A stretch of DNA of 64,000 bases. It comes from Escherichia coli (GTDB lineage Bacteria > Pseudomonadota > Gammaproteobacteria > Enterobacterales > Enterobacteriaceae). Each line of letters opens with the position of its first letter. The first letter of the stretch is position 1. Location of the stretch: the NCBI RefSeq assembly GCF_024700885.2, contig NZ_CP117016.1; one strand, 5' to 3'. Of this stretch, positions 33,900-51,087 are shown one piece after another. The notes beneath the pieces are model-generated. The model worked only from the letters and a program-made list of their open reading frames with translations. It searched no databases and was not told the origin of the DNA. The translations under genes and the position numbers were made by a program.

Positions 33900-34153
33900 C
33901 ACAACCTCGCACCAATTAACAGTGCAATAGTAAATGATTGTTAATAACAGTTATCTTAATTGTTTAAAAAAAGTGATTTTTATCACAAAGGAAATACGCC
34001 TGACCAGCGGTCAGAGACATAACTGGCACGTAAGGTTTGCAACCACTAACCCACCAATAGAGAGGTAGAAAGGGCGTTAATCTCCCATACTTAACCTGGT
34101 TTATGGTAAATTGCCCTCCATTTTGTTTAATTTGTAGATGATACGTTCAGATA

Positions 34154-35383
34154 ATGTCTAATATTTGGTCAAAAGAAGAAACTCTGTGGAGTTTCGCGCT
34201 CTACGGCACAGCCGTTGGTGCAGGCACGCTCTTCCTTCCTATTCAGTTAGGTTCGGCAGGGGCTGTGGTCCTGTTTATTACTGCTCTGGTCGCCTGGCCT
34301 TTAACATATTGGCCACATAAAGCCTTATGCCAGTTCATCCTCTCATCAAAAACATCAGCAGGTGAAGGGATAACGGGCGCGGTAACACACTACTATGGCA
34401 AGAAGATTGGTAATCTGATTACCACGCTGTACTTCATCGCCTTTTTTGTCGTCGTGTTGATATATGCCGTGGCAATTACCAACTCACTTACGGAACAGCT
34501 GGCAAAGCATATGGTTATTGATCTTCGCATCCGTATGTTGGTGAGTCTGGGTGTTGTATTAATCCTGAATCTCATTTTTCTAATGGGACGCCATGCCACT
34601 ATTCGGGTAATGGGATTTTTGGTATTCCCATTGATTGCCTATTTCTTATTTCTTTCTATTTACCTGGTCGGTAGTTGGCAACCTGATCTATTAACTACCC
34701 AGGTAGAGTTCAATCAGAATACCCTTCACCAGATATGGATATCGATTCCCGTGATGGTTTTCGCCTTTAGCCATACGCCCATTATTTCTACGTTTGCCAT
34801 AGACAGACGTGAAAAATATGGCGAACATGCTATGGATAAATGCAAAAAAATTATGAAAGTCGCTTATCTCATCATCTGCATAAGTGTACTGTTCTTTGTC
34901 TTTAGCTGCCTGCTTTCTATTCCACCTTCGTATATTGAAGCGGCTAAAGAAGAAGGGGTTACCATTTTATCGGCGCTTTCTATGCTGCCGAACGCCCCAG
35001 CATGGTTGTCAATTTCCGGGATTATTGTCGCAGTCGTTGCGATGTCGAAATCATTCCTGGGTACGTACTTTGGCGTTATTGAAGGTGCCACGGAGGTCGT
35101 CAAAACAACACTGCAGCAGGTTGGTGTAAAGAAAAGTCGTGCATTTAACCGCGCACTATCAATTATGTTGGTATCGCTGATTACCTTCATTGTTTGTTGC
35201 ATTAACCCGAACGCGATATCGATGATTTACGCGATCAGCGGCCCGCTCATTGCCATGATACTTTTCATCATGCCTACGCTGTCAACATATCTCATCCCGG
35301 CGCTTAAACCCTGGCGTTCCATCGGAAATCTGATTACGCTGATCGTGGGTGTCCTGTGCGTATCGGTAATGTTCTTTAGCTAA
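34154..35383 (+). CDS. yqeG: Putative amino-acid permease (HAAAP/SdaC-like, about 11 TM)
   Basis: 409-aa highly hydrophobic ORF; family call from hydrophobicity pattern and genomic context. Confidence 0.8.
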   Translation: MSNIWSKEETLWSFALYGTAVGAGTLFLPIQLGSAGAVVLFITALVAWPLTYWPHKALCQFILSSKTSAGEGITGAVTHYYGKKIGNLITTLYFIAFFVVVLIYAVAITNSLTEQLAKHMVIDLRIRMLVSLGVVLILNLIFLMGRHATIRVMGFLVFPLIAYFLFLSIYLVGSWQPDLLTTQVEFNQNTLHQIWISIPVMVFAFSHTPIISTFAIDRREKYGEHAMDKCKKIMKVAYLIICISVLFFVFSCLLSIPPSYIEAAKEEGVTILSALSMLPNAPAWLSISGIIVAVVAMSKSFLGTYFGVIEGATEVVKTTLQQVGVKKSRAFNRALSIMLVSLITFIVCCINPNAISMIYAISGPLIAMILFIMPTLSTYLIPALKPWRSIGNLITLIVGVLCVSVMFFS

Positions 35384-35842: not shown

Positions 35843-36475
35843 ATGGGGCTTTGTAGTCGTTATAAAAGTCTTACATGCAATAGTTGCTCAATGCATTGCC
35901 AAATAATGCCAGAAGAGTCACCGCGTTTGCAGTATTGCGCAAACTCGTGTTTTTGTATGTGGCCCGAAGAAAGTTCATATTTTAATCGTGGTGTGGTGGA
36001 AGGTATCTTAACAAAAAACCACAATGCGAGATTAAGCGGATATATTTTTGTCGATTTTTCAGTAAGTTTTTTACGTCTATTCCTTGAAAAAGACTGGATT
36101 GACTATCTTGCAAGTACTGACATGGGGATTGTTTTAGTCAGCGACCGAAATATGCAATCGTTAGCTAACTACTGGCGAAAACACAACTCTGCAATATCTG
36201 CTGTCATATATAATGATGATGGTCTTGATGTTGCCAATGAAAAGATCAGACAACTATTTATTGGTCGTTATTTATCATTTACCAGAGGGAACACATTAAC
36301 TCAGATGGAATTCACCATAATGGGATATATGGTTTCTGGTTATAATCCATATCAGATTGCTGAAGTTCTGGATATGGATATCCGTAGCATCTACGCGTAC
36401 AAGCAACGAATCGAAAAGAGAATGGGTGGTAAAATAAACGAGTTATTTATTCGTTCACATTCGGTCCAACATTGA
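35843..36475 (+). CDS. yqeH: LuxR/FixJ-type HTH transcriptional regulator (ETT2-island remnant)
   Basis: AT-rich ORF; strong RBS GGGAGG 9 nt upstream of the Met at 35843 (ORF track frame opens at 35783); C-terminal LuxR-like HTH segment QMEFTIMGYMVSGYNPYQIAEVLDMDIRSIYAYKQRIEKRMG. Confidence 0.7.
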   Translation: MGLCSRYKSLTCNSCSMHCQIMPEESPRLQYCANSCFCMWPEESSYFNRGVVEGILTKNHNARLSGYIFVDFSVSFLRLFLEKDWIDYLASTDMGIVLVSDRNMQSLANYWRKHNSAISAVIYNDDGLDVANEKIRQLFIGRYLSFTRGNTLTQMEFTIMGYMVSGYNPYQIAEVLDMDIRSIYAYKQRIEKRMGGKINELFIRSHSVQH

Positions 36476-36688
36476 TACTCAATAATCTGCCAGAATCATA
36501 CTCTGCTTATACGGGCATCTATTGAAATGCCCGTATTTTACAAATAAGCAGTACCCCCAAGAGTAAACAACATGGTATTTAAAACCATCACACGAAAAAT
36601 TCAGAAGCATTACGAAATATGAATTTACAAACAGGTGATGCTGCCAACTTACTGATTTAGTGTATGATGGTGTTTTTGAGGTGCTCCA

Positions 36689-36964
36689 GTGGCTTCTGTT
36701 TCTATCAGCTGTCCCTCCTGTTCAGCTACTGACGGGGTGGTGCGTAACGGCAAAAGCACCGCCGGACATCAGCGCTATCTCTGCTCTCACTGCCGTAAAA
36801 CATGGCAACTGCAGTTCACTTACACCGCTTCTCAACCCGGTACGCACCAGAAAATCATTGATATGGCCATGAATGGCGTTGGATGCCGGGCAACTGCCCG
36901 CATTATGGGCGTTGGCCTCAACACGATTTTACGTCACTTAAAAAACTCAGGCCGCAGTCGGTAA
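36689..36964 (+). CDS. insA: IS1 InsA (transposition inhibitor / N-terminal part of InsAB' transposase)
   Basis: 91-aa [43 protein letters not shown] (zinc-finger CxxC...CxxC). Confidence 0.9.
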
Positions 36965-37386
36965 CCTCGCGCATACAGCCGGGCAGTGACGTCATCGTCT
37001 GCGCGGAAATGGACGAACAGTGGGGCTATGTCGGGGCTAAATCGCGCCAGCGCTGGCTGTTTTACGCGTATGACAGTCTCCGGAAGACGGTTGTTGCGCA
37101 CGTATTCGGTGAACGCACTATGGCGACGCTGGGGCGTCTTATGAGCCTGCTGTCACCCTTTGACGTGGTGATATGGATGACGGATGGCTGGCCGCTGTAT
37201 GAATCCCGCCTGAAGGGAAAGCTGCACGTAATCAGCAAGCGATATACGCAGCGAATTGAGCGGCATAACCTGAATCTGAGGCAGCACCTGGCACGGCTGG
37301 GACGGAAGTCGCTGTCGTTCTCAAAATCGGTGGAGCTGCATGACAAAGTCATCGGGCATTATCTGAACATAAAACACTATCAATAA
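36883..37386 (+). CDS. insB: IS1 InsB frame (expressed as InsAB' transposase by -1 frameshift)
   Basis: ORF in the -1 frame relative to insA; slippery A6C motif at 36940-36946 inside the insA/insB overlap. Confidence 0.85.
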
Positions 37387-37638
37387 GTTGGAGTCATTAC
37401 CCAGTCTGTCGATGACATTACAATGCCAGGATGGGCTTTATCTTCACGTTGTGCTATCGCGGTGTGAGAGGTGCAACTGCCGCCAACGTTAGGTTATACT
37501 GTCATCTCACCGTGTAACTTAACGTGACAGTTACTAAGGGCGGATCACAATGGTAGAACTCCTAAGCAAATTAAATAGGTAACTGTTTAAGTTGCTGACA
37601 GAGAAGACTTTTTTGGTCTTCTCCACCTGGGGAGATTC

Positions 37639-37712
37639 TGGAGCGGGCGAAGGGAATCGAACCCTCGTATAGAGCTTGGGAAGCTCTCGTTCTACCATTG
37701 AACTACGCCCGC
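37639..37712 (-). tRNA. glyU: tRNA-Gly (anticodon CCC)
   Basis: Minus strand reads GCGGGCGTAGTTCAATGGTAGAACGAGAGCTTCCCAAGCTCTATACGAGGGTTCGATTCCCTTCGCCCGCTCCA; cloverleaf with anticodon CCC and encoded CCA end. Confidence 0.9.
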
Positions 37713-37790
37713 TTCGAGATGCGTAAGGCATTATAAACCTTACGCTCTCCTTAGCAAGTGCCGCGCTGCTGACTGCTGATTAATTCGCCA

Positions 37791-38543
37791 TCAGCATTTT
37801 GGCTTGCTGCTCTGAGGCGGCAAGTAACGCAGCGGATCAATTGCCGTAGCACGGTAACGAATCTGGAAATGCAGGCGAACCGATGCCGCATCAGTGCTCC
37901 CCATAGTGGCGATTTTTTGCCCAGCCTTCACGCTTTGCCCATTATTTACCAGCATCGTGTCATTATGGGCGTAAGCCGTAATGTAATCTTCACTGTGTTT
38001 AATCATGATGAGATTACCGTAGCCACGCAGCTGGTTGCCCACATACACCACCTTTCCTGCACCCGCGGCGTAAATAGGTGTACCTCGTGGAGCTGAGATA
38101 TCAATCCCTTTATTGCCGCCATCAGCTGTCGAATACGGCATGATAACTTTCCCTGTCGTTGGCCATAACCAACAACGTTGCCCTACTGGCGGCCAGGAAG
38201 ATTTCGGTACTGCTGATGACGGTGTAACCGATGCGGTTTTGGTCGTTGATTTGGCGGTTGATTTACGTGTACTGCTACTTTTCGCCCCACCCAGTTTTAG
38301 TTTCTGACCAACTTCAATGGTGTAAGGGGGGGAAATGCCGTTCAGTCGCGCCAGCTCTTTTACGCTGGTTCCCGTGGTGCGCGAAATACGATATAGCGTA
38401 TCCCCCCGTTTCACGGTGTAAACGGAGCCGGAATACGTTCCTGTATCGGATGATTTGCTACCCGAGCAGCCCGCCAAAAGCAGTCCAACCGATAACAACA
38501 TCACGATACCCAGAGATTTTTTATTCAGGCGTCCCGCACTCAA
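37791..38543 (-). CDS. ygeR: LysM + M23-family peptidase-domain lipoprotein
   Basis: ORF 37791..38567; lipobox LLAGCSG, LysM segment YTVKRGDTLYRISRTTGTSVKELARLNGI, C-terminal M23-like domain; probable TTG start with RBS GAGGA 6 nt upstream. Confidence 0.8.
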   Translation of the reverse strand: MSAGRLNKKSLGIVMLLSVGLLLAGCSGSKSSDTGTYSGSVYTVKRGDTLYRISRTTGTSVKELARLNGISPPYTIEVGQKLKLGGAKSSSTRKSTAKSTTKTASVTPSSAVPKSSWPPVGQRCWLWPTTGKVIMPYSTADGGNKGIDISAPRGTPIYAAGAGKVVYVGNQLRGYGNLIMIKHSEDYITAYAHNDTMLVNNGQSVKAGQKIATMGSTDAASVRLHFQIRYRATAIDPLRYLPPQSSKPKC

Positions 38544-38887
38544 AATCTTTCCTCGCTTAAAAAACAAGACGCCATATCATAGCAGCCAGCCTCTGGATAC
38601 CCAATCTCTTGCTTCTCGAAAAACGCGGTAATAGAGAAAGAGGTTAATTTCATTTGGCAAAGGGAAGTATCATCAGCAAAATATTCGCTGCAGAGGTATC
38701 GAATTTCCTGACTTTTTTACCCTATTTCCCATCCTGATGCGTAATAATCCTGATTTATCACATTGATTTTATCGCCACTCATATTGATACGTATCACTGC
38801 CCCTATTCAGAGTCCTGTTTCGTATCATATCTGTGTTTTTTTAACGTCATCACACTTCCTTCCTCCCCTAACGCTTATCGTCGTTTC

Positions 38888-38902
38888 TGGCGTAAATCTT
38901 GC
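38888..38902 (+). promoter_or_regulatory. Candidate sigma54 (-24/-12) promoter for xdhABC
   Basis: TGGCGTA-AATC-TTGC matches TGGCAC-N5-TTGC with correct GG-N10-GC spacing, about 95 nt upstream of xdhA; TTATCA-CAT-TGAT and TGATA-CG-TATCA palindromes at 38751-38797. Confidence 0.45.
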
Positions 38903-38997
38903 CTGCTTAGACTAAATCTTTGCCATAAGAACCAAATGTTCAAATCGAGGGGATTTCTATGGAAGCGCGGGAAGCAACCGCTACGGGTGAATCTTGC

Positions 38998-41256
38998 ATG
39001 CGCGTCGATGCCATTGCTAAGGTCACCGGGCGGGCACGATATACTGACGATTATGTTATGGCGGGCATGTGTTACGCGAAATATGTACGTAGCCCTATCG
39101 CACATGGTTATGCCGTAAGTATTAATGATGAACAAGCCAGAAGTTTACCAGGCGTACTGGCGATTTTTACCTGGGAAGATGTACCTGATATCCCATTCGC
39201 TACAGCTGGGCATGCCTGGACACTTGACGAAAACAAGCGCGATACCGCCGATCGCGCACTGCTAACTCGCCATGTTCGTCATCATGGTGACGCCGTTGCC
39301 ATCGTCGTGGCCCGTGATGAACTCACGGCAGAAAAAGCGGCGCAATTGGTCAGCATTGAGTGGCAAGAATTACCCGTTATCACCACGCCAGAAGCGGCGC
39401 TGGCAGATGACGCTGCACCAATCCATAACGGCGGCAATTTACTAAAACAAAGCTCGATGTCGACGGGTAATGTCCAACAAACAATCGATGCCGCCGATTA
39501 CCAGGTGCAGGGGCACTATCAGACGCCGGTCATTCAACATTGTCACATGGAAAGCGTGACATCGCTGGCATGGATGGAGGATGACTCGCGAATTACCATC
39601 GTTTCCAGCACCCAGATCCCGCACATTGTTCGCCGTGTGGTTGGTCAGGCGCTGAATATTCCCTGGTCATGCGTACGAGTCATCAAACCGTTTGTCGGTG
39701 GCGGTTTTGGTAATAAACAGGATGTACTGGAAGAGCCAATGGCGGCATTCCTGACCAGCAAGCTTGGCGGCATTCCGGTGAAAGTTTCCCTTAGCCGTGA
39801 AGAGTGTTTCCTCGCAACCCGTACCCGCCACGCTTTTACTATTGACGGGCAAATGGGCGTGAACCGCGACGGAACATTGAAAGGTTATAGTCTGGATGTT
39901 CTGTCTAACACCGGCGCTTATGCATCTCACGGGCACTCCATCGCTTCTGCAGGGGGGAATAAAGTCGCTTACCTTTATCCTCGTTGTGCCTACGCTTACA
40001 GTTCAAAGACCTGCTATACCAACCTCCCCTCGGCTGGTGCGATGCGTGGTTATGGCGCGCCACAAGTCGTATTTGCCGTTGAGTCTATGCTTGATGACGC
40101 CGCGACAGCGTTAGGTATTGATCCTGTTGAAATTCGTTTACGCAACGCCGCCCGCGAAGGAGATGCTAATCCGCTCACAGGCAAACGTATTTACAGCGCA
40201 GGGTTGCCGGAGTGTCTTGAAAAAGGCCGGAAAATCTTTGAATGGGAAAAACGCCGTGCAGAGTGCCAGAACCAGCAAGGCAATTTACGCCGCGGCGTTG
40301 GCGTCGCCTGTTTTAGCTACACCTCTAACACCTGGCCTGTCGGCGTAGAAATTGCTGGCGCGCGCCTGTTGATGAATCAGGATGGAACCATCAACGTACA
40401 GAGTGGTGCCACGGAAATCGGCCAGGGTGCCGACACCGTGTTCTCGCAAATGGTGGCAGAAACCGTGGGGGTTCCGGTCAGCGACATTCGCGTTATTTCA
40501 ACACAAGATACCGACGTTACGCCGTTCGATCCCGGCGCATTTGCCTCACGCCAGAGCTATGTTGCCGCGCCCGCGCTACGCAGTGCGGCACTGTTATTAA
40601 AGGAGAAAATCATCGCTCACGCCGCTGTCATGCTACATCAGTCAGCGATGAATCTTACCTTGATAAAAGGCCATATCGTGCTGGTTGAACGACCGGAAGA
40701 GCCGTTAATGTCGTTAAAAGATTTGGCGATGGATGCCTTCTACCACCCTGAACGCGGCGGGCAGCTCTCTGCCGAAAGCTCCATCAAAACCACCACTAAC
40801 CCACCAGCGTTTGGCTGTACCTTTGTTGATCTGACGATCGATATTGCGCTGTGCAAAGTCACCATCAACCGCATCCTTAACGTTCATGATTCGGGCCATA
40901 TTCTTAATCCGTTGCTGGCAGAAGGTCAGGTACACGGCGGAATGGGAATGGGCATTGGCTGGGCGCTATTTGAAGAGATGATCATCGATGCGAAAAGCGG
41001 CGTGGTCCGTAACCCCAATCTGCTGGATTACAAAATGCCCACCATGCCGGATCTGCCACAACTGGAAAGCGCGTTCGTCGAAATCAATGAGCCGCAATCC
41101 GCATACGGACATAAGTCACTGGGTGAGCCACCAATAATTCCTGTTGCCGCTGCTATTCGTAACGCGGTGAAGATGGCTACCGGTGTTGCAATCAATACAC
41201 TGCCGCTGACGCCAAAACGGTTATATGAAGAGTTCCATCTGGCAGGATTGATTTGA
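38998..41256 (+). CDS. xdhA: Xanthine dehydrogenase molybdenum-binding subunit
   Basis: Molybdopterin-binding aldehyde oxidase/XDH family ORF; alternative in-frame upstream ATG at 38959 with GAGGGG RBS (start uncertain). Confidence 0.9.
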   Translation: MRVDAIAKVTGRARYTDDYVMAGMCYAKYVRSPIAHGYAVSINDEQARSLPGVLAIFTWEDVPDIPFATAGHAWTLDENKRDTADRALLTRHVRHHGDAVAIVVARDELTAEKAAQLVSIEWQELPVITTPEAALADDAAPIHNGGNLLKQSSMSTGNVQQTIDAADYQVQGHYQTPVIQHCHMESVTSLAWMEDDSRITIVSSTQIPHIVRRVVGQALNIPWSCVRVIKPFVGGGFGNKQDVLEEPMAAFLTSKLGGIPVKVSLSREECFLATRTRHAFTIDGQMGVNRDGTLKGYSLDVLSNTGAYASHGHSIASAGGNKVAYLYPRCAYAYSSKTCYTNLPSAGAMRGYGAPQVVFAVESMLDDAATALGIDPVEIRLRNAAREGDANPLTGKRIYSAGLPECLEKGRKIFEWEKRRAECQNQQGNLRRGVGVACFSYTSNTWPVGVEIAGARLLMNQDGTINVQSGATEIGQGADTVFSQMVAETVGVPVSDIRVISTQDTDVTPFDPGAFASRQSYVAAPALRSAALLLKEKIIAHAAVMLHQSAMNLTLIKGHIVLVERPEEPLMSLKDLAMDAFYHPERGGQLSAESSIKTTTNPPAFGCTFVDLTIDIALCKVTINRILNVHDSGHILNPLLAEGQVHGGMGMGIGWALFEEMIIDAKSGVVRNPNLLDYKMPTMPDLPQLESAFVEINEPQSAYGHKSLGEPPIIPVAAAIRNAVKMATGVAINTLPLTPKRLYEEFHLAGLI

Positions 41257-41266
41257 GGATAACATC

Positions 41267-42145
41267 ATGTTTGATTTTGCTTCTTACCATCGCGCAGCAA
41301 CCCTTGCCGATGCCATCAACCTGCTGGCTGACAACCCACAGGCCAAACTGCTCGCCGGTGGCACTGACGTACTGATTCAGCTCCACCATCACAATGACCG
41401 TTATCGCCATATTGTTGATATTCATAATCTGGCGGAGCTGCGGGGAATTACGCTAGCGGAAGATGGCTCACTACGTATCGGCTCTGCAACGACATTTACC
41501 CAGCTCATTGAAGATCCTGTAACTCAACGTCATCTCCCAGCGTTATGTGCTGCGGCCTCGTCCATTGCCGGACCGCAGATCCGTAACGTCGCTACCTACG
41601 GTGGAAATATTTGCAACGGTGCTACCAGTGCAGATTCTGCCACGCCAACGCTAATTTATGACGCGAAACTGGAGATTCACTCCCCGCGCGGTGTTCGTTT
41701 CGTCCCGATTAATGGCTTTCACACTGGGCCGGGCAAAGTGTCTCTTGAGCATGACGAAATCCTTGTCGCCTTTCATTTTCCGCCCCAGCCGAAAGAACAC
41801 GCGGGCAGCGCGCATTTTAAATATGCCATGCGCGACGCAATGGATATTTCAACGATTGGCTGCGCCGCACATTGCCGACTGGATAACGGCAATTTCAGCG
41901 AATTACGCCTGGCATTTGGTGTTGCCGCGCCAACGCCAATTCGCTGCCAACATGCCGAACAGACTGCACAAAATGCGCCATTAAACCTGCAAACACTGGA
42001 AGCCATCAGCGAATCAGTCCTGCAAGATGTCGCCCCGCGTTCTTCATGGCGGGCCAGTAAAGAGTTTCGTCTGCATCTCATCCAGACGATGACCAAAAAA
42101 GTGATTAGCGAAGCCGTCGCCGCGGCGGGGGGAAAATTGCAATGA
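41267..42145 (+). CDS. xdhB: Xanthine dehydrogenase FAD-binding subunit
   Basis: 292-aa CO dehydrogenase flavoprotein-like ORF (GGTDVL motif); overlaps xdhC start (ATGA). Confidence 0.95.
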
Positions 42146-42621
42146 ATCACAGCGAAACAATCACCATCGAATGCACCATTAACGGGATGCCTTTTCAGCT
42201 TCACGCCGCACCAGGCACGCCGCTCTCGGAATTACTCCGCGAACAAGGACTGCTAAGTGTCAAACAAGGGTGCTGCGTGGGTGAATGTGGTGCCTGTACG
42301 GTGCTGGTCGACGGCACAGCAATAGACAGTTGCTTATACCTTGCCGCCTGGGCTGAAGGAAAAGAGATCCGCACGCTGGAAGGTGAAGCGAAAGGCGGAA
42401 AACTTTCTCATGTACAGCAGGCTTATGCTAAATCCGGCGCAGTGCAGTGCGGGTTTTGTACGCCTGGCCTGATTATGGCTACCACAGCAATGCTGGCGAA
42501 ACCACGCGAGAAGCCATTAACCATTACGGAAATTCGTCGCGGACTGGCGGGAAATCTTTGTCGCTGCACGGGGTATCAGATGATTGTAAATACAGTTCTG
42601 GATTGCGAGAAAACGAAGTAA
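42142..42621 (+). CDS. xdhC: Xanthine dehydrogenase [2Fe-2S] subunit
   Basis: 159-aa ORF with both 2Fe-2S cysteine motifs ([11 protein letters not shown] ... QCGFCTPG ... CRCTGY). Confidence 0.95.
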
Positions 42622-42628
42622 AAGGATA

Positions 42629-42650
42629 TCCGGCCTGAATTCAGGCCGGA
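42629..42650. terminator. Palindromic hairpin between convergent xdhC and ygeV
   Basis: TCCGGCCTG-AATT-CAGGCCGGA; on the minus strand followed by a U-rich tract, so mainly a ygeV terminator, possibly bidirectional. Confidence 0.55.
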
Positions 42651-42660
42651 TTCACTGAGG

Positions 42661-44439
42661 TTATGTGTTTAACAACTCATATTTCTTAATCTTGCGATAG
42701 AGCGTAGCAATGCCGATGCCCAGTTCATCAGCAACTTGCTTCTTGCTGTTATGACGTGAAAGCGCCTCGCGGATCATTTGCTTTTCCATCTCCTCCAGCG
42801 CCGTGCCGCCCGCATCATCGAGTGCCAGGTGCGCCTCGTTGACCTCTGTTACATCACTTTGCTCCGTTGTGCCATTATTCAGCAGATTTGGCGGCAATAG
42901 CGTGCTGTCGATAACTTCACCTGAAGGAACCACGTTAACCAGATATTCCATCAAATTGCTTAACTCGCGCAGGTTTCCGGGCCAACGATGCTTACGCAAT
43001 ATTTCGACGACATCGGGAGCAATGCCCGGATAAACCGATCCCAGACGACGGGTATGCAGATGTAAAAAGTAATGCACCAGTAGTTCAATATCTTCCTGAC
43101 GTTCACGCAGCGGTGGCAGAGTTATCGGGATAACATTAAGTCGGTAGAAGAGATCTTCGCGGAATTTACCTTCGGCAATGAACTGGGCCAAATTCTGGTT
43201 AGTTGCAGAAATGATGCGAATGTCGACTTGTATTGGGCTACTGGCACCAATCGGCAGAATTTCACGCGCCTCAATAGCGCGCAGTAATTTAGCCTGCAAC
43301 ATTAATGGCATATCACCTATTTCATCGAGAAACAGCGTGCCCGTATTCGCCGCCTGAATCAACCCTGTTTTACCGTTGGCAGAAGCGCCAGTAAATGCGC
43401 CTTTAACATAACCGAACAGTTCGCTCTCCAGAAGCTGCTCCGGAATCGCGGCACAGTTGATAGCAATAAAGGGTTTATTCCGTCTTCCGCTCAACTTATG
43501 GATTGCACGGGCGACAACTTCTTTACCCGTGCCGCTTTCACCAACCACCATAACGCTGGATGGGCTGGGTGCAATACGGCTAATGAGTCGTTTTAATTGC
43601 CGCATAACACGGCACTCGCCAACCAATTGTTCAATATGCGGTTCATCAGGTGCATTTGCTACAGAAAAACTGGTATGCGATTGGTGAAACGCCATTAAAA
43701 ATAATTGTCGGCCCTGAATGTTATGCAATTGACCAATGATTAATTCACTTTTATCGTCCCACGAAACAATATGCTGCATATGTCCATGGGTAAAATTACT
43801 CTCAAATGTTAATGGTCTGAAACGGATAGGTTTCCCAATAATATTATTTTGTACAACACCAAGTGTTTTTAAGGCAGTCTGATTAACAAACTGAATCCGA
43901 TTATCGTCATCAACAACTAATACACCCTGATCCATATTATCGATCATGGTCGCGAATATTTTACTGATGTTATCTCCTGGTCCCTGATCCTCCAGAAGTT
44001 TCGAAACAAAAATGGTGGATATATGGCGAACGTAATCAGAAAATTCGCGTAAATTATCACTAATATGCTCTTGTTGCTCGTGGGTAACGGCAATCAAACT
44101 TATCACCCCAACACAACGATCCTGTAAAATGACAGGCGTACCCAGAAATGCTTTTTCGCGGCAATTTTCTTTACTATCGCAACCTTCGCAAAGGGGATCG
44201 AAGCGAGACTGTGTCACAACTTTTTCAGTTTTCGTTTCCAGGACGTGGCGGAGCAGGCGTGAGTTGCCGCTCAACTGGCGACCAAGAAACTTCCCATACG
44301 CGCCCGTTCCGGCGACGCGACACAAGTTTTCATCAACGATCTCAACCTCAAGCTGCAAAACGCTGGCAAGCATTCTGGCAAAACGCTGAATTGTCGGTTG
44401 AATTTGCATCAATACTGACTGCGTAGTAGCAAGCTCCAT
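42661..44439 (-). CDS. ygeV: Sigma54-dependent transcriptional activator (bacterial enhancer-binding protein)
   Basis: 592-aa ORF with AAA+ sigma54 interaction domain: Walker A GESGTGKE, GAFTGA motif (KGAFTGA), ESELFGY, and C-terminal HTH. Confidence 0.9.
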   Translation of the reverse strand: MELATTQSVLMQIQPTIQRFARMLASVLQLEVEIVDENLCRVAGTGAYGKFLGRQLSGNSRLLRHVLETKTEKVVTQSRFDPLCEGCDSKENCREKAFLGTPVILQDRCVGVISLIAVTHEQQEHISDNLREFSDYVRHISTIFVSKLLEDQGPGDNISKIFATMIDNMDQGVLVVDDDNRIQFVNQTALKTLGVVQNNIIGKPIRFRPLTFESNFTHGHMQHIVSWDDKSELIIGQLHNIQGRQLFLMAFHQSHTSFSVANAPDEPHIEQLVGECRVMRQLKRLISRIAPSPSSVMVVGESGTGKEVVARAIHKLSGRRNKPFIAINCAAIPEQLLESELFGYVKGAFTGASANGKTGLIQAANTGTLFLDEIGDMPLMLQAKLLRAIEAREILPIGASSPIQVDIRIISATNQNLAQFIAEGKFREDLFYRLNVIPITLPPLRERQEDIELLVHYFLHLHTRRLGSVYPGIAPDVVEILRKHRWPGNLRELSNLMEYLVNVVPSGEVIDSTLLPPNLLNNGTTEQSDVTEVNEAHLALDDAGGTALEEMEKQMIREALSRHNSKKQVADELGIGIATLYRKIKKYELLNT

Positions 44440-44808
44440 AGCTTTACCTTCCAGACTTACTTAAAAGTCGATCATTGAAGACGTTGATGGTTCACAGATC
44501 ATGATGATATTAACTCAGGCGAAATTGGCTTTGATAAAAACATAAGATTTTTATCACTTTCTAATGAAATTATGGAAGAGATATCACATTTCTATATCAA
44601 TATGAGAATTACGGCGGTGAGTTTATCAAACTGAAGAGAGAGCGCCTGTTCCTTTATCTTATTTCTGATACTTAGCAGCAAATAAATAACGCGATAAAAA
44701 AAGCCAAACGTTTTCGTATTTTACAAACAACCAGAAGCTGGCATCAATTTGTGATCAACCCCACACATTACCCGTCAAATTAGTCTTTTGCAGCCGCTTG
44801 GATAATTC

Positions 44809-44824
44809 TGGCATAGTTATTGTT
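44809..44824 (+). promoter_or_regulatory. Weak candidate sigma54 promoter upstream of ygeW
   Basis: TGGCATA-GTTA-TTGT: -24 element good, -12 is GT rather than GC; TGATAA/TTATCA-type repeats further upstream (44531-44633). Confidence 0.3.
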
Positions 44825-44915
44825 AGTCCCAGGTATAGCTGTGAAAAGACCAATCACTTTTGGCAAGTCACAGTGAAATAAACCTCTTTGCCTGTCATTC
44901 CACTACCGGGACTTT

Positions 44916-46106
44916 ATGATGAAAACTGTTAATGAGCTGATTAAGGATATCAATTCGCTGACCTCTCACCTTCACGAGAAAGATTTTTTGTTAACGTGGG
45001 AACAGACGCCAGATGAACTGAAACAAGTACTGGACGTTGCCGCAGCATTAAAAGCACTGCGTGCTGAAAACATCTCAACCAAAGTCTTTAATAGTGGATT
45101 AGGTATTTCCGTATTCCGCGACAACTCCACCCGTACCCGTTTCTCTTATGCTTCCGCGCTTAACCTGCTCGGCCTTGCACAGCAAGATCTCGACGAAGGC
45201 AAATCACAAATCGCTCACGGCGAAACCGTGCGTGAAACCGCCAATATGATCTCCTTCTGCGCCGATGCCATCGGTATTCGTGACGATATGTATCTGGGCG
45301 CAGGCAACGCCTATATGCGTGAAGTTGGCGCTGCACTTGATGACGGTTACAAGCAGGGTGTGCTGCCGCAACGTCCGGCTTTAGTGAACCTGCAATGCGA
45401 TATTGACCACCCGACTCAGTCAATGGCTGACCTGGCATGGTTACGTGAACACTTTGGTTCACTGGAAAACCTGAAAGGTAAAAAAATCGCCATGACCTGG
45501 GCCTACTCCCCAAGCTATGGCAAACCGCTCTCTGTACCACAAGGCATCATCGGTCTGATGACTCGCTTCGGTATGGATGTCACCCTGGCCCATCCGGAAG
45601 GCTACGACCTGATCCCGGATGTCGTTGAAGTCGCTAAAAACAATGCTAAAGCCTCCGGCGGTAGCTTCCGTCAGGTCACCAGCATGGAAGAAGCCTTCAA
45701 AGACGCAGACATCGTTTATCCGAAGTCATGGGCACCTTACAAAGTGATGGAAGAGCGTACTGAATTGCTGCGTGCGAACGATCACGAAGGCTTAAAAGCA
45801 CTGGAAAAACAGTGTCTGGCACAGAACGCGCAACACAAAGACTGGCATTGTACTGAAGAGATGATGGAACTGACCCGTGATGGCGAAGCCCTGTACATGC
45901 ACTGCCTGCCAGCTGATATCAGCGGCGTATCCTGCAAAGAAGGTGAAGTGACTGAAGGCGTATTCGAAAAATACCGTATCGCGACCTACAAAGAAGCCAG
46001 CTGGAAGCCTTATATCATCGCCGCGATGATCCTGTCCCGCAAATACGCCAAACCAGGTGCACTGCTCGAGCAACTGCTGAAAGAAGCGCAAGAACGCGTG
46101 AAATAA
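44916..46106 (+). CDS. ygeW: Carbamoyltransferase-family protein (ATCase/OTCase fold)
   Basis: 396-aa ORF with carbamoyl-phosphate binding STRTR motif (DNSTRTRFSYASA). Confidence 0.9.
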   Translation: MMKTVNELIKDINSLTSHLHEKDFLLTWEQTPDELKQVLDVAAALKALRAENISTKVFNSGLGISVFRDNSTRTRFSYASALNLLGLAQQDLDEGKSQIAHGETVRETANMISFCADAIGIRDDMYLGAGNAYMREVGAALDDGYKQGVLPQRPALVNLQCDIDHPTQSMADLAWLREHFGSLENLKGKKIAMTWAYSPSYGKPLSVPQGIIGLMTRFGMDVTLAHPEGYDLIPDVVEVAKNNAKASGGSFRQVTSMEEAFKDADIVYPKSWAPYKVMEERTELLRANDHEGLKALEKQCLAQNAQHKDWHCTEEMMELTRDGEALYMHCLPADISGVSCKEGEVTEGVFEKYRIATYKEASWKPYIIAAMILSRKYAKPGALLEQLLKEAQERVK

Positions 46107-46163
46107 CCCCTCGGGCCGATCAGCTGGTCGGCCCTCTATTTCCAGAGGCCAAAAGGATAGGAT

Positions 46164-47360
46164 ATGTCCGTTTTCTCATTGAAGATTGATATCGCCGATA
46201 ACAAATTTTTCAACGGCGAAACATCACCGCTCTTTTCGCAAAGCCAGGCCAAACTGGCGCGCCAGTTCCACCAGAAAATTGCTGGTTATCGCCCAACACC
46301 GCTTTGTGCGCTGGACGATCTCGCAAACCTTTTTGGTGTGAAGAAAATTCTCGTCAAAGACGAATCAAAACGATTCGGTCTGAACGCCTTCAAAATGCTC
46401 GGCGGTGCGTACGCCATCGCTCAATTATTGTGTGAAAAATATCATCTTGATATCGAAACGCTGTCATTTGAGCATCTGAAAAATGCCATCGGCGAAAAAA
46501 TGACCTTCGCGACCACCACCGACGGCAACCACGGGCGCGGTGTGGCATGGGCAGCACAGCAACTCGGACAGAATGCGGTGATTTACATGCCGAAAGGTTC
46601 TGCTCAGGAACGCGTTGACGCCATTCTGAACCTCGGTGCCGAGTGCATCGTCACGGATATGAACTATGACGATACCGTTCGCCTGACCATGCAACACGCG
46701 CAGCAGCACGGCTGGGAAGTGGTGCAAGATACCGCCTGGGAAGGTTACACCAAAATCCCAACCTGGATCATGCAGGGCTATGCAACACTGGCAGATGAAG
46801 CCGTCGAGCAAATGCGTGAAATGGGCGTAACCCCGACGCACGTTCTGCTGCAAGCTGGTGTCGGTGCAATGGCCGGTGGTGTGCTGGGTTATCTGGTCGA
46901 CGTCTATAGCCCGCAAAATCTGCACAGCATTATTGTTGAACCTGACAAAGCTGACTGTATTTATCGCTCCGGCGTCAAAGGCGACATCGTCAACGTTGGC
47001 GGTGATATGGCCACCATCATGGCGGGCCTGGCCTGCGGCGAACCTAACCCGCTGGGCTGGGAAATCCTACGTAACTGCGCCACCCAATTCATCTCCTGCC
47101 AGGACAGTGTTGCCGCATTAGGTATGCGTGTGCTGGGTAATCCGTACGGCAATGACCCGCGCATCATCTCCGGTGAATCCGGCGCTGTCGGTTTGGGCGT
47201 TCTCGCAGCGGTTCATTATCACCCGCAACGTCAAAGCCTGATGGAAAAACTGGCGCTGAACAAAGATGCCGTAGTGCTGGTTATCAGCACTGAAGGCGAC
47301 ACAGACGTGAAGCACTACCGCGAAGTTGTCTGGGAAGGCAAACACGCTGTAGCACCTTAA
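46164..47360 (+). CDS. ygeX: PLP-dependent 2,3-diaminopropionate ammonia-lyase
   Basis: 398-aa fold-type II PLP enzyme ORF. Confidence 0.9.
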   Translation: MSVFSLKIDIADNKFFNGETSPLFSQSQAKLARQFHQKIAGYRPTPLCALDDLANLFGVKKILVKDESKRFGLNAFKMLGGAYAIAQLLCEKYHLDIETLSFEHLKNAIGEKMTFATTTDGNHGRGVAWAAQQLGQNAVIYMPKGSAQERVDAILNLGAECIVTDMNYDDTVRLTMQHAQQHGWEVVQDTAWEGYTKIPTWIMQGYATLADEAVEQMREMGVTPTHVLLQAGVGAMAGGVLGYLVDVYSPQNLHSIIVEPDKADCIYRSGVKGDIVNVGGDMATIMAGLACGEPNPLGWEILRNCATQFISCQDSVAALGMRVLGNPYGNDPRIISGESGAVGLGVLAAVHYHPQRQSLMEKLALNKDAVVLVISTEGDTDVKHYREVVWEGKHAVAP

Positions 47361-47417
47361 TCACCCTATTGGAACTGCTCCCTGCAAAACGGGGAGTAAA
47401 AAATCTGGAGAAAAATA

Positions 47418-48629
47418 ATGGCTAAGAATATTCCATTCAAACTGATTCTTGAAAAAGCAAAAGATTACCAGGCGGACATGACTCGCTTCCTGCGCGACAT
47501 GGTTGCTATTCCCAGTGAAAGCTGCGACGAAAAACGCGTAGTACATCGTATTAAAGAAGAGATGGAAAAAGTCGGCTTCGATAAAGTTGAAATCGACCCG
47601 ATGGGCAACGTTCTCGGTTATATCGGCCACGGCCCGCGTCTGGTGGCAATGGACGCTCATATTGATACCGTCGGCATTGGCAACATCAAAAACTGGGACT
47701 TCGATCCGTACGAAGGCATGGAAACTGATGAGCTGATCGGTGGTCGCGGTACTTCCGACCAGGAAGGCGGCATGGCATCTATGGTTTATGCCGGTAAAAT
47801 CATTAAAGACCTCGGTCTGGAAGATGAATATACCCTGCTGGTTACCGGTACTGTGCAGGAAGAAGACTGCGACGGTCTGTGCTGGCAGTACATTATTGAA
47901 CAATCCGGCATTCGCCCGGAATTTGTGGTCAGTACCGAACCAACCGACTGCCAGGTATACCGTGGTCAGCGCGGTCGTATGGAAATTCGTATTGATGTTC
48001 AGGGTGTTAGCTGCCACGGTTCTGCGCCAGAACGCGGTGACAACGCCATTTTCAAAATGGGTCCGATTCTTGGCGAATTACAAGAACTCTCCCAACGTCT
48101 GGGTTATGACGAATTCCTCGGCAAAGGCACCCTCACCGTTTCTGAAATCTTCTTCACATCCCCAAGCCGTTGCGCTGTAGCAGATAGCTGCGCCGTCTCT
48201 ATTGACCGCCGTCTGACCTGGGGCGAAACCTGGGAAGGCGCGCTGGACGAAATCCGCGCCCTGCCTGCAGTACAGAAAGCTAACGCGGTTGTTTCTATGT
48301 ACAACTACGACCGTCCGTCCTGGACTGGCCTGGTTTACCCAACCGAATGCTACTTCCCGACCTGGAAAGTGGAAGAAGATCACTTCACCGTTAAAGCACT
48401 GGTGAATGCCTACGAAGGTCTGTTTGGCAAAGCGCCGGTTGTTGATAAGTGGACCTTCTCAACTAACGGCGTATCTATCATGGGCCGTCACGGCATTCCG
48501 GTGATCGGCTTTGGCCCAGGTAAAGAACCTGAAGCGCATGCACCTAACGAAAAAACCTGGAAATCTCACCTGGTGACCTGTGCCGCGATGTACGCGGCAA
48601 TCCCGTTAAGCTGGCTGGCAACCGAATAA
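47418..48629 (+). CDS. ygeY: M20-family peptidase / deacylase
   Basis: 403-aa ORF of the ArgE/DapE/M20 family. Confidence 0.9.
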
Positions 48630-48646
48630 TTACTCTTCACTTATTC

Positions 48647-48671
48647 CCCTCCGGTTCGCCGGAGGGTTTTT
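48647..48671 (+). terminator. Intrinsic terminator / attenuator between ygeY and hyuA
   Basis: Stem CCCTCCGG / CCGGAGGG with UUCG tetraloop followed by T5 (48667-48671), 11 nt before the hyuA ATG. Confidence 0.6.
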
Positions 48672-48681
48672 GGAGTTTGCT

Positions 48682-50067
48682 ATGCGCGTATTGATCAAAA
48701 ACGGCACTGTCGTTAACGCAGATGGACAAGCCAAACAGGATTTGCTGATTGAAAGCGGGATTGTTCGCCAGTTGGGCAACAATATTTCGCCACAGCTCCC
48801 GTATGAAGAAATTGATGCCACTGGCTGTTACGTTTTCCCTGGCGGCGTGGATGTCCATACGCATTTCAATATTGATGTCGGCATCGCGCGCAGTTGTGAT
48901 GATTTTTTTACCGGTACCCGCGCAGCTGCGTGTGGCGGTACAACAACCATTATTGACCATATGGGATTTGGCCCGAATGGCTGCCGGTTACGCCATCAAC
49001 TGGAGGTTTATCGTGGTTATGCCGCCCATAAGGCGGTCATCGACTACAGCTTTCACGGTGTGATCCAGCACATTAATCACGCCATCCTCGACGAAATTCC
49101 GATGATGGTCGAAGAAGGACTGAGCAGTTTTAAACTCTATTTAACCTATCAATACAAACTCAACGATGACGAAGTTTTGCAGGCGTTACGCCGCTTGCAT
49201 GAGTCCGGCGCGCTGACCACCGTGCACCCGGAAAATGATGCAGCTATCGCCAGCAAGCGGGCGGAGTTTATTGCCGCAGGGTTAACCGCGCCGCGCTATC
49301 ACGCCTTGAGTCGCCCTCTGGAATGCGAAGCGGAAGCCATCGCCCGCATGATTAACCTGGCACAAATTGCCGGTAACGCCCCGCTCTATATCGTGCACCT
49401 GTCTAACGGCTTAGGTCTGGATTATCTGCGTCTTGCCCGTGCGAATCACCAGCCAGTCTGGGTTGAAACCTGCCCACAATATCTCCTGTTGGACGAACGC
49501 AGTTACGATACAGAAGATGGCATGAAGTTCATTCTTAGCCCACCGCTGCGTAACGTACGCGAGCAGGACAAACTGTGGTGTGGCATCAGCGATGGTGCGA
49601 TTGACGTGGTAGCGACCGATCACTGCACATTCTCGATGGCTCAACGCCTGCAAATTTCTAAAGGCGATTTCAGTCGCTGCCCAAATGGCTTACCCGGTGT
49701 GGAAAACCGCATGCAGTTACTGTTTTCCAGTGGCGTTATGACGGGACGTATAACACCGGAACGTTTTGTTGAATTAACCAGCGCGATGCCCGCCAGGCTG
49801 TTTGGCCTGTGGCCGCAAAAAGGATTATTAGCGCCCGGTTCCGATGGCGACGTGGTGATTATCGACCCACGTCAGAGTCAACAAATTCAGCATCGCCATC
49901 TCCACGACAACGCCGACTACTCGCCATGGGAGGGTTTTACCTGTCAGGGCGCGATTGTCAGAACTTTATCCCGTGGTGAAACGATTTTCTGTGACGGCAC
50001 TTTTACAGGCAAAGCCGGGCGAGGTCGTTTCCTGCGACGCAAACCGTTTGTCCCTCCCGTGCTCTAA
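48682..50067 (+). CDS. hyuA: D-hydantoinase / dihydropyrimidinase-family amidohydrolase
   Basis: ORF track frame opens at 48670 (TTG); ATG at 48682 with GGAG RBS; metal-binding DVHTHF motif. Confidence 0.9.
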   Translation: MRVLIKNGTVVNADGQAKQDLLIESGIVRQLGNNISPQLPYEEIDATGCYVFPGGVDVHTHFNIDVGIARSCDDFFTGTRAAACGGTTTIIDHMGFGPNGCRLRHQLEVYRGYAAHKAVIDYSFHGVIQHINHAILDEIPMMVEEGLSSFKLYLTYQYKLNDDEVLQALRRLHESGALTTVHPENDAAIASKRAEFIAAGLTAPRYHALSRPLECEAEAIARMINLAQIAGNAPLYIVHLSNGLGLDYLRLARANHQPVWVETCPQYLLLDERSYDTEDGMKFILSPPLRNVREQDKLWCGISDGAIDVVATDHCTFSMAQRLQISKGDFSRCPNGLPGVENRMQLLFSSGVMTGRITPERFVELTSAMPARLFGLWPQKGLLAPGSDGDVVIIDPRQSQQIQHRHLHDNADYSPWEGFTCQGAIVRTLSRGETIFCDGTFTGKAGRGRFLRRKPFVPPVL

Positions 50068-50114
50068 CCACTGCCAAGGATCTATACACAATCAAGAATG
50101 ATGAGTGAGGAAAA

Positions 50115-51047: not shown

Positions 51048-51087
51048 TTAAAAGGCCGGGTGGGTAATACCATCCGGCCATTTTCAT

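Follow-up and report, generated by a model that had tools for sequence, protein, structure and literature searches.

The window analysed here is a 64,000-nucleotide stretch of a non-K-12 Escherichia coli genome that carries genes of the xdh/yge/ygf cluster. On its plus strand lies the operon xdhA-xdhB-xdhC (38959-42621; the individual genes span 38959-41256, 41267-42145 and 42142-42621, as given by the open reading frames and the RefSeq annotation), while ygeV (isrR), which encodes a candidate activator, is located on the minus strand (42661-44439). In E. coli, this cluster represents the anaerobic uric-acid degradation pathway of gut bacteria, a pathway recently linked to host urate balance and gout, and its regulation has so far been described through co-expression only. 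What we add is a conserved candidate YgeV operator, directly open to experiment; the xdhA sigma-54 promoter itself is not new, having already been published.

Results

The sequence-only reading had proposed a sigma-54 promoter ahead of xdhA, and this proposal stands. The sequence TGGCGTAAATCTTGC at 38888-38902 shows the canonical spacing, its GG and GC being exactly 10 bases apart as expected for sigma-54; compared with TGGCAC-N5-TTGCW it is a moderate match, with G-T in place of A-C and C as the last base. The promoter CTGGCGTAAATCTTGCC (38887-38903, plus strand; -24 GG at 38889-90, -12 GC at 38901-02) is conserved, and cTGGCGTAAATCTTGCc at these coordinates is the exact 17-mer of the published sigma-54 site ahead of xdhA, that is, ChIP-seq site OS29 (FAT 11, PSSM 10.9), to which Bonocora et al. 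(2015; PMC4591121) attach the flag "experimentally confirmed in EcoCyc". The authors of that study also cite an earlier rpoN microarray study with xdhA among its genes. Our element and xdhAp of EcoCyc (OS29; Bonocora et al., 2015; PMC4591121) are the same object, with identical 17-mer, orientation, gene and predicted start. The transcription unit served by this promoter is xdhA-xdhB-xdhC, and when the window is compared with K-12, a few substitutions are found elsewhere in the spacer and none in the promoter. A sigma-54 promoter of xdhA is said to have been predicted earlier, reportedly by Reitzer and Schneider in 2001.

The promoter is intergenic, is oriented to the gene and lies about 57 bp 5′ of a conserved Shine-Dalgarno sequence and ATG. 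Adding 19 bp to the motif centre (38895), as in the rule of Bonocora et al. (2015; PMC4591121), gives a predicted plus-strand transcription start at 38914, and the predicted leader up to the ATG at 38959 comprises about 45 nt. Most of the 29 orthologous regions described below keep this ATG together with the Shine-Dalgarno sequence AGGGGA at 38948-53 (both within 38948-38961, plus strand). Judging from the alignment, the ATG at 38959 is the probable true start of xdhA; the K-12-annotated ATG (38998) is replaced by TTG or CTG in Buttiauxella and Trabulsiella, and the 765-aa form of xdhA is the one annotated by PGAP. Two further candidates were rejected in this region. Rfam at gathering thresholds, run over nucleotides 36000-56000 to detect a riboswitch or a similar RNA structure in the leader, returned a tRNA-Gly only, and the single weak match to a sigma-70 promoter for xdhA (38654-38682; 9/12 positions) was no better than what is obtained in shuffled sequence.

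Taken by sequence statistics alone, neither the promoter match nor the two palindromes upstream of it is unusual. The window has six occurrences of TGGC-N7-TTGC where 4.75 are expected, and 39/100 shuffles reach six; by our estimate, 64 kb should contain about 15 perfect 12-bp palindromes, whatever their sequence. It is because of their placement, their conservation at fixed distances in 12 genera, the ChIP-seq occupancy and the enrichment of the upstream word that these features amount to more than chance. In an alignment of the DNA upstream of xdhA (29 regions, 12 enterobacterial genera), three conserved blocks stood out amid diverged sequence: the promoter, a TCACA box and a pair of TATCA-N3-TGA sites. 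TGGCGT-N5-TTGC is kept in 29/29 of the regions, 92-123 bp ahead of the K-12-type start, with spacer bases that vary. The published ChIP-seq data and the conservation found here together demonstrate sigma-54 binding at the xdhA promoter.

The two palindromes, TTATCACATTGAT at 38755-38767 and TGATACGTATCA at 38785-38796, the latter a perfect 12-bp palindrome, lie exactly where the sequence-only reading had placed them, and their description as enhancer-type elements was right as regards place and motif. Their parsing has to be revised, as the conserved units are 38756-38766 and 38779-38789: the first palindrome corresponds to the left conserved site, whereas the second is conserved in its TGATA arm only. 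The distal candidate enhancer (UAS) site, TATCACATTGA (38756-38766, plus strand), is centred at 38762, inside palindrome 1; this corresponds to about -127 when counted from the first G of the -24 GG and to about -152 when counted from the predicted start of transcription. The proximal candidate enhancer (UAS) site, TCATATTGATA (38779-38789, minus strand, on which it reads TATCAATATGA), is centred at 38783, 21 bp from the distal site; the corresponding distances are about -106 (GG) and about -131 (predicted start of transcription). Both centres fall within 80-200 bp upstream and are separated by whole helical turns, the arrangement expected of a UAS. The full dyad ATCA-N3-TGA-N12-TCA-N3-TGAT has its sole zero-mismatch match in the window at the xdhA pair.

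Calling a site at a score of at least 8/10 against TATCA-N3-TGATA, the distal site is present at -125 to -130 in 29/29 orthologous regions and the proximal site at -105 to -108 in 28/29, the exception being Hafnia, in which the sites are displaced upstream by one 20-bp step. The two sites are inverted with respect to each other, 20-21 bp apart in 24/29 regions, and their position relative to the promoter is maintained within about 5 bp across the 12 genera, while the DNA from the sites to the promoter has diverged among the 29 regions. Within the site, positions 1-5 (TATCA) and 9-11 (TGA) are near-invariant; positions 6-8 are variable but A/T-rich.

Palindrome 2 is contained in TTGATACGTATCAC (38784-38797), a word that matches the FNR consensus dyad TTGAT-N4-ATCAA at 9/10 positions and is identical in K-12. 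That this word is an FNR site which puts xdhABC under oxygen control in K-12-like E. coli appears improbable to us, and so does its corollary, that FNR at 38784-38797 would share DNA with the proximal enhancer site and might compete for it. The cluster works anaerobically, which fits such control, but the conservation of the word does not: only TTGATA, the end of the proximal UAS site, is conserved, CGTATCAC lying outside it. The second arm, CGTATCA (38790-38796), is restricted to K-12-like E. coli; the remaining Escherichia lineages and every other genus have unrelated sequence in its place, so the two conserved arms expected of an FNR site are not found among the 29 regions. One-mismatch FNR words are not enriched in the window either (3 against 2.9 expected). 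The centre of the word lies about 123 bp ahead of the sigma-54 start, and we know of no FNR activation from such a position. A review-type statement mentions FNR regulation of xdhABC and refers for it to a microarray analysis (Salmon et al., 2003), whereas the accessible portion of the FNR ChIP-seq supplement text of Myers et al. (2013) holds no entry for xdhA. FNR was rejected as the main reading, as the 9/10 match is lineage-specific and finds no ChIP support in that portion of the supplement text.

Between the pair of TATCA-N3-TGA sites and the promoter, an A/T tract and a virtually invariant TCACA (38850-38854) occupy nucleotides 38836-38857 of the plus strand, conserved at a fixed distance from the promoter (TCAC in 29/29 regions, TCACA in 28/29, with TCACG in Hafnia). 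The sequence TTTTA-ACGTCA-TCACA (38839-38854) is CRP-like, with one good half that reads AAgTGTGAT on the minus strand and a distal half, TTTTA or TATTA, that matches 3/5 positions and is devoid of the consensus G residues. Its centre is at -42.5 from the GG and at about -67.5 from the predicted start. It is probable that the TCACA box, about 40 bp ahead of the -24 element, binds a bending or co-regulatory protein, for which CRP would be our best guess. The full CRP cores at ygeW and ygfK are centred at -52.5 and -72.5 from their GG, 10 and 30 bp further out than the xdhA box, so that all three are in helical phase. Glucose repression of urate degradation has been reported, and a Crp site has been described between ygeV and ygeW. 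We do not postulate an IHF site, since a consensus scan of 21 genomes found no conserved WATCAA-N4-TTR between enhancer and promoter; the best IHF matches (6-8/9 positions) were located at places that differ among genomes.

The upstream word is not restricted to xdhA. TATCANNNTGA is found 11 times in the window against 1.56 expected (0/100 shuffles reach 11), and 7/11 matches fall in the 1.2 kb of DNA that precedes the sigma-54 promoters of xdhA, ygeW and ygfK, against 0.07 expected (local dinucleotide shuffles of the three upstream regions; 0/2000 reach seven), figures to be read bearing in mind that the word was defined on xdhA and that independent tests are thus provided only by the matches at ygeW, ygfK and ygfT/uacT. 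Upstream of ygeW, the word is present as at xdhA, in TATCAATATGA (44595-605) and TATCAAACTGA (44624-634), which together span 44595-44634 on the plus strand. Counted from the GG of ygeW, the first of these sites lies at -208 to -210 (20/20 sequences) and the second at -179 to -181 (11/20, at a score of at least 8/10). The ygeW sigma-54 promoter, CTGGCATAGTTATTGTT (44808-44824, plus strand), is conserved and is the orthologue of ChIP-seq site OS30; ahead of it lie a PurR-box-like word (44702-17) and, nearer to the promoter, a CRP core (44750-65). At ygfK, the perfect palindrome TATCATAATGATA (54264-54276) is centred 177 bp ahead of the -24 GG of the ygfK sigma-54 promoter, GTGGTGCGATTGTTGCT (54445-54461, plus strand), which is identical to ChIP-seq site OS31. 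The DNA that separates this palindrome from the promoter contains a perfect CRP core, TGTGAGTTCATTCACA, at 54367-82. Three Kluyvera species have a TATCATAATGA site at an equal distance from ygfK and keep the promoter too. Both OS30 (ygeW) and OS31 (ygfK) were identified as sigma-54 sites by ChIP-seq (Bonocora et al., 2015; PMC4591121). The K-12 ygfT-uacT spacer contains TATCAATATGAGAAAAT, and the common word expected of a UAS is hence present at xdhA, ygeW, ygfK and K-12 ygfT-uacT. Measured from the GG, the UAS centres are at -127/-106 for xdhA, about -209/-180 for ygeW and -177 for ygfK, and the layout differs: xdhA has an inverted pair with a spacing of 21 bp, ygeW a direct pair with a spacing of 29 bp, and ygfK a single palindrome.

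These data bear on whether the upstream palindromes may be chance A/T-rich words devoid of function, the promoter being activated from solution or from elsewhere, an explanation to which we attach very little probability. The region is only 41% G+C, and in 64 kb both a 12-bp palindrome and a palindrome with 4-bp arms are unremarkable. Nevertheless, position and sequence are conserved in 12 genera amid diverged DNA, local shuffles give 0.07 matches where seven are observed, and the same word recurs at the sister promoters, all of which strongly disfavours chance. The conservation of the upstream word, its fixed spacing and its regulon-wide sharing are established by the present analysis. The word copy inside ygeX provides a negative control, as it shows no conservation at synonymous positions. 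The ygeX palindrome (46440-46452) was rejected as an internal enhancer, its synonymous positions not being conserved beyond Escherichia and Citrobacter, and among the listed sigma-54 ChIP sites none belongs to the genes of the ygeX region.

The differing layout counts against binding by YgeV, as does the composition of the word, which is A/T-rich, partly Fur-like at ygfK (ATAATGATAA) and overlaps the FNR-like word in K-12-like strains.

The sequence-only reading had considered ygeV the sole sigma-54 activator gene in the vicinity and had suggested xdhABC as its target. The first statement proved correct, YgeV being the only protein encoded in the window that contains GAFTGA, as expected of a cognate activator. 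Pfam assigns to YgeV a PAS domain, a weak GAF match, Sigma54_activat (E = 2e-70) and a C-terminal HTH_8, and detects no receiver domain. The gene is syntenic with xdhABC in most genera; a protein search for ygeV orthologues yielded near-identical E. coli variants as the sole matches. The second statement is supported by the lack of any other activator in the window, by the common word and by the published hypothesis, and the paired sites are probably where YgeV binds, as far as can be deduced from the DNA. A search of the literature for a YgeV footprint, EMSA, ChIP or ygeV-dependence of xdhA gave no result. According to a paper citing Iwadate and Kato (2019), ygeV is reported to be needed for anaerobic urate consumption. 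Lamoureux et al. (2023) include xdhABC in a putative YgeV regulon.

Another regulator, either an unlinked activator or a global factor with a preference for A/T-rich dyads, for example a Fur-like protein, might instead occupy the TATCA-N3-TGA pair, which we regard as unlikely; that YgeV then acts at other sites, or only at other promoters of the cluster, is unlikely to the same degree. Kluyvera (three species), Hafnia and Enterobacillus keep sites and promoter with no sigma-54 activator within 10 kb on either side, as another regulator would allow, and the literature searched contains no YgeV binding. In addition, XdhABC and YgfK are iron-sulphur proteins, and the ygfK palindrome holds the Fur-box-like ATAATGATAA, which agrees with the classical Fur box over 10 nt. 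However, it is TATCA and TGA that are conserved, while the central A/T triplet (the AAT-type centre important for Fur) varies freely, and for this reason Fur was rejected as the main reading. That the word is restricted to the regions of sigma-54 promoters within a single co-expressed cluster also argues against another regulator, as do the enhancer-type distances and the helical-turn spacing. The other sigma-54 activators of E. coli are known to have assigned targets (after Reitzer and Schneider, 2001), so that YgeV and the promoters discussed here are left over without a partner.

Discussion

Taken as a whole, the explanation that YgeV, acting from an upstream enhancer, controls xdhABC through sigma-54 is the one we favour, and we consider it reasonably likely. 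According to it, sigma-54 RNA polymerase at 38887-38903 would form a closed complex unable to start transcription alone. The two inverted TATCA-N3-TGA sites (centres 38762 and 38783), two helical turns apart, would jointly constitute the enhancer. YgeV would be their most likely binder, by means of its C-terminal Fis-type HTH and probably with one dimer per site. A signal, presumably purine- or urate-related, would be received by the PAS/GAF-like sensor region and would lead to the active AAA+ ring. Looping of the DNA would bring YgeV to the promoter, which it would open by ATP hydrolysis, with the participation of CRP (our best guess) or of another bending or co-regulatory protein on the TCACA box. 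As the layout of site, CRP and promoter is repeated at ygeW and ygfK, the whole purine/urate cluster would switch on together.

A more general proposal, for and against which we see about equal grounds, is that TATCA-N-W-W-TGA-K represents the hitherto undescribed YgeV/IsrR operator, that a module consisting of YgeV site, in-phase CRP site and sigma-54 promoter is common to xdhA, ygeW, ygfK and the divergent ygfT/uacT region and constitutes the code that switches on the enterobacterial purine/uric-acid cluster, and that CRP, not IHF, bends the DNA at natural sigma-54 promoters. The candidate operator also represents a handle for engineering urate-degrading probiotic strains in which the native control region is not replaced wholesale.

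The genes concerned are those of the 'YgeV iModulon', which co-vary and comprise xdhABC, ygeWXY, hyuA, ygfK-ssnA-ygfM-xdhD, ygfT and uacT, with YgeV as the proposed activator, as described by Lamoureux et al. (2023). The available parts of that article and of Kumar et al. (2022) offer co-expression and phenotypes, and no YgeV binding motif. Kumar et al. (2022) rename YgeV as IsrR and call it an 'orphan response regulator', whereas by Pfam the protein is devoid of a receiver domain.

The arrangement at xdhA resembles that of NtrC at glnAp2, ZraR, PspF and NorR, with two dyad sites 100-150 bp upstream of a -24/-12 promoter. The whole-helical-turn spacing and the Fis-type HTH are also shared with NtrC-type systems, and looping is proposed for xdhA. 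In contrast to those systems, no canonical IHF site is found from enhancer to promoter at xdhA, and TATCA-N3-TGA is unlike the known sites of NtrC, NorR or PspF. Having a PAS/GAF-like sensor and no receiver, YgeV is closer to the ligand-sensing NorR, FhlA, PrpR and XylR than to NtrC. PrpR at prpBCDE offers a parallel, as a catabolic operon with a sigma-54 promoter, a ligand-sensing activator encoded in the cluster and catabolite control. The sigma-54 promoter of prpBCDE is also under cAMP-CRP control, and the parallel extends to the CRP cores that lie between enhancer and promoter at ygeW and ygfK and to the reported glucose repression of the pathway. Compared with prpBCDE, xdhA presents one recognisable CRP half-site, to which CRP binding would be putative.

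The xdhA promoter and its spacer

Gene order was taken from the RefSeq annotation of an identical strain and of K-12 MG1655: minus-strand actS(ygeR), plus-strand xdhA-xdhB-xdhC, minus-strand ygeV (42661-44439) and then a plus-strand series beginning with ygeW-ygeX-ygeY-hyuA-yqeA. The elements studied here are located in the actS-xdhA spacer. The 441 bases around them match 5,397 of 5,426 complete E. coli genomes, xdhA being the annotated feature under the match, and the K-12 spacer is near-identical to that of the window, including two palindromes singled out by the sequence-only reading.

Ahead of xdhA, the sigma-54-like word TGGCGTAAATCTTGC is present at 38888-38902, with the GG of the -24 element at 38889-90 and the GC of the -12 element at 38901-02. 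By itself this is statistically unremarkable: TGGC-N7-TTGC occurs 6 times in the window (4.75 expected), and a loose sigma-54 consensus scan of the window returns many near-matches inside genes. As the promoter word and the two palindromes are unremarkable taken alone, the case rests on context, conservation and published data. In the sigma-54 ChIP-seq study of Bonocora et al. (2015; PMC4591121, Table 1), site OS29 is the plus-strand motif CTGGCGTAAATCTTGCC upstream of b2866 xdhA; it scores 11 in fold above threshold and is flagged 'C' (experimentally confirmed in EcoCyc). That 17-mer is identical to window 38887-38903. By the rule of the same study, which counts 19 bp downstream from the centre of the motif, xdhA transcription is predicted to begin at about 38914, in agreement with the position expected from the sequence-only reading. 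Every region in the alignment of xdhA upstream sequences keeps TGGCGT and TTGC, and the bases between them vary. The proposed sigma-54 promoter is thus borne out by the identical published 17-mer and by -24 and -12 elements invariant across orthologous regions; it is already known. Table 1 of PMC4591121 further includes sites at ygeW (OS30), ygfK (OS31) and ygfT (OS32).

For xdhA, the start annotated in K-12 (ATG at 38998, 752 aa) is probably not the true one. The ATG at 38959 and its Shine-Dalgarno sequence AGGGGA (38948-53; together 38948-38961) are kept in most of the 29 aligned orthologous regions, the K-12-type ATG is replaced by TTG or CTG in Buttiauxella and Trabulsiella, and the 765-aa form is already in the PGAP annotation.

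Within the genus Escherichia the actS-xdhA spacer is mosaic: its distal half (about 38568-38750) in K-12-like E. coli is unrelated to that of other lineages (L002-L005, L016 and L025, comprising clade strains, E. whittamii and E. albertii), while the enhancer-to-promoter part can still be aligned among them.

Paired conserved sites upstream of the promoter

A scan for XdhA with one genome per species gave 32 loci, from Escherichia, Citrobacter, Kluyvera, Atlantibacter, Buttiauxella, Hafnia, Enterobacillus, Yokenella, Klebsiella indica, Trabulsiella and Pluralibacter. We aligned 29 xdhA upstream regions, as well as a 12-sequence subset (alignment A1). Mean column identity over the 29 regions is merely 60%, and three blocks are conserved: the promoter, an invariant TCAC preceded by an A/T tract, and paired TATCA-N3-TGATA sites. 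The TCAC block reads TCACA in 28 of 29 regions (window 38850-38854), at a constant distance to the -24 element. With positions counted from the first G of the GG and at least 8 of 10 matches to TATCA-N3-TGATA required, all 29 sequences have a distal site with its centre between -125 and -130, and 28 have a proximal one between -105 and -108; the two centres are 20-21 bp apart in 24/29, and Hafnia has three sites in 20-bp steps. Comparison of the distinct site sequences shows almost no variation in TATCA (positions 1-5) and TGA (9-11), variable yet A/T-rich bases at 6-8, and G or T at position 12. Relative to the predicted start, the left site in the window, TATCACATTGA (38756-38766, centre 38762), lies at about -152 and the right site, TCATATTGATA (38779-38789, centre 38783), at about -131.

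The two palindromes proposed earlier as activator sites, TTATCACATTGAT (38755-38767) and TGATACGTATCA (38785-38796), are both present, and they fare differently. The first is essentially the left conserved site; of the second, only the first arm (TGATA) coincides with the right site, and the aligned regions of other Escherichia lineages and every other genus have unrelated sequence in place of the second arm (CGTATCA). With one flanking base on each side this second palindrome becomes TTGATACGTATCAC, a 9/10 match to the FNR consensus, which could represent a lineage-specific FNR input to xdhABC; a recent paper cites the microarray study of Salmon et al. (2003) as the source for FNR control of xdhABC, and on that account we keep this reading as a minor rival. 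However, FNR near-matches are not enriched in the window (3 versus 2.9 expected), the second arm of TTGATACGTATCAC is not conserved, and the accessible part of the supplement text of an FNR ChIP-seq study does not mention xdhA.

Recurrence of the word at sister promoters

The word TATCANNNTGA has 11 matches on both strands of the window versus 1.56 expected: xdhA has two of them, the ygeV-ygeW spacer three and the ygfK upstream region two, with four in the other 62.8 kb. The two at ygfK make up a perfect palindrome, TATCATAATGATA (54264-54276), located 177 bp ahead of the sigma-54 promoter GTGGTGCGATTGTTGCT (54445-54461). Taken together, the xdhA, ygeW and ygfK upstream regions hold 7 matches against 0.07 expected and no more than 2 in any of 2000 shuffles, each region having been shuffled separately because of their low G+C. 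Only the five ygeW and ygfK matches test this enrichment independently, since the word was derived from xdhA itself. Alignment of 20 ygeV-ygeW spacers revealed TATATCAATATGAGAAT and TTTATCAA as invariant blocks. Counted from the ygeW GG, the first ygeW site falls between -208 and -210 in 20/20 genomes. Outside the window, the K-12 ygfT-uacT spacer contains TATCAATATGAGAAAAT, which repeats the extended word of the ygeW site.

A copy of the word within ygeX served as a negative control: beyond Escherichia and Citrobacter it is lost at synonymous codon positions. This copy, the perfect palindrome TATCATCTTGATA in ygeX (dpaL; 46440-46452), encodes Y-H-L-D-I and, judged by this loss, is probably a chance occurrence.

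YgeV as the candidate activator

The sequence-only reading had named ygeV as the only nearby sigma-54 activator, and its product is indeed the sole GAFTGA-motif protein in the window. The Pfam matches in YgeV are PAS (residues 162-205), GAF (weak), the sigma-54 interaction domain (E = 2e-70), the AAA lid domain and a C-terminal HTH_8; Pfam found no receiver domain. YgeV is thus a ligand- or signal-sensing enhancer-binding protein rather than the 'orphan response regulator' named in the IsrR paper. In most genera ygeV adjoins xdhABC. As far as we know, YgeV is the E. coli activator left without assigned promoters, and these are the promoters left without an activator. From this, from genomic linkage and from the word common to co-expressed sigma-54 promoters, we infer that YgeV binds the TATCA-N3-TGA sites. 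In the literature searched we found no published YgeV binding site or dependence of xdhA on ygeV. Lamoureux et al. (2023; PMC10602906) describe a 'YgeV iModulon' containing xdhABC and ygeWXY, so that, with OS29, promoter and YgeV hypothesis for xdhABC are both already in print. The earlier observation is therefore confirmed and its interpretation supported; what is added here is a conserved, regulon-wide candidate YgeV operator and a corrected parsing of the palindromes.

The main caveat comes from Kluyvera, Hafnia and Enterobacillus, which keep the sites and the promoter with no sigma-54 activator within 10 kb. In three Kluyvera species (L009, L010, L020) the segment from ygeV to ssnA is missing and xdhABC is directly followed by ygfM-xdhD-xanQ-guaD-ghxQ; the xdhC-ygfM spacer (about 13620-14160) carries a ygfK-type sigma-54 promoter directly before ygfM-xdhD, with TATCATAATGA 178 bp upstream.

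A CRP-like box between enhancer and promoter

No IHF consensus is conserved in the stretch that separates the enhancer from the promoter. On the minus strand the TCACA box with its flanks gives AAgTGTGAT, which is a good half-site for CRP; the opposite half is only A/T-rich. At ygeW and ygfK, full CRP cores likewise lie between enhancer sites and sigma-54 promoter: TGTGATCAACCCCACA (44750-44765, near-perfect), described as the native Crp site (PMC12507026), and TGTGAGTTCATTCACA (54367-54382, perfect). The CRP-like centres are at -42.5 (xdhA), -52.5 (ygeW) and -72.5 (ygfK) from the respective GG, differing by whole helical turns and hence in helical phase. Taking into account that glucose is reported to repress urate degradation (PMC12507026), the half-site and the in-phase cores lead us to propose, with moderate confidence, CRP as the protein at the xdhA box, in an architectural or co-activating role.

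A plausible sequence of events would then start with sigma-54 RNA polymerase on 38887-38903 as a closed complex and YgeV dimers on the two sites, at about -152 and -131. Upon a signal, probably purine- or urate-related, an active YgeV ring would form, contact sigma-54 by looping, aided by a bend (by CRP?) at about -67, and open the promoter; transcription of xdhABC would begin near 38914, giving a leader of about 45 nt. With this module repeated at ygeW, ygfK and ygfT/uacT, the cluster as a whole would be coordinated. That the candidate YgeV operator and the in-phase CRP sites do form one module we consider an even chance.

Further elements in the ygfT-uacT and ygeV-ygeW spacers

In the divergent ygfT-uacT spacer of K-12 (locus L034), a single TATCAATATGAGAAAAT lies between the published ygfT sigma-54 site and a sigma-54-like word facing uacT (33979-33995, 34161-34177, 34282-34298). 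The latter, CTGGCACTCCACGAGCAT, has correct GG/GC spacing and is absent from the published list; uacT may have its own sigma-54 promoter, with one enhancer common to ygfT.

In the ygeV-ygeW spacer, a conserved block at 44499-44515 (ATGATATTAAC; ATGATACTAAC in other genera), some 60-75 bp upstream of the ygeV start codon, reads TAATAT or TAGTAT on the ygeV strand and may be the -10 element of a ygeV promoter. It also yields one TATCANNNTGA match (44499-44509), which, arising from this conserved block, may be coincidental or autoregulatory. A further word, AGCCAAACGTTTTCGT (44702-44717), located after the TATCA sites and before the ygeW sigma-54 promoter, agrees with 14 of 16 positions of the PurR operator consensus. 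This PurR-like block (AAGCCAAACGTTTTCG) is conserved in most of the 20 aligned spacers, not in Buttiauxella, and may be a purine-repressor input to the sigma-54 promoter.
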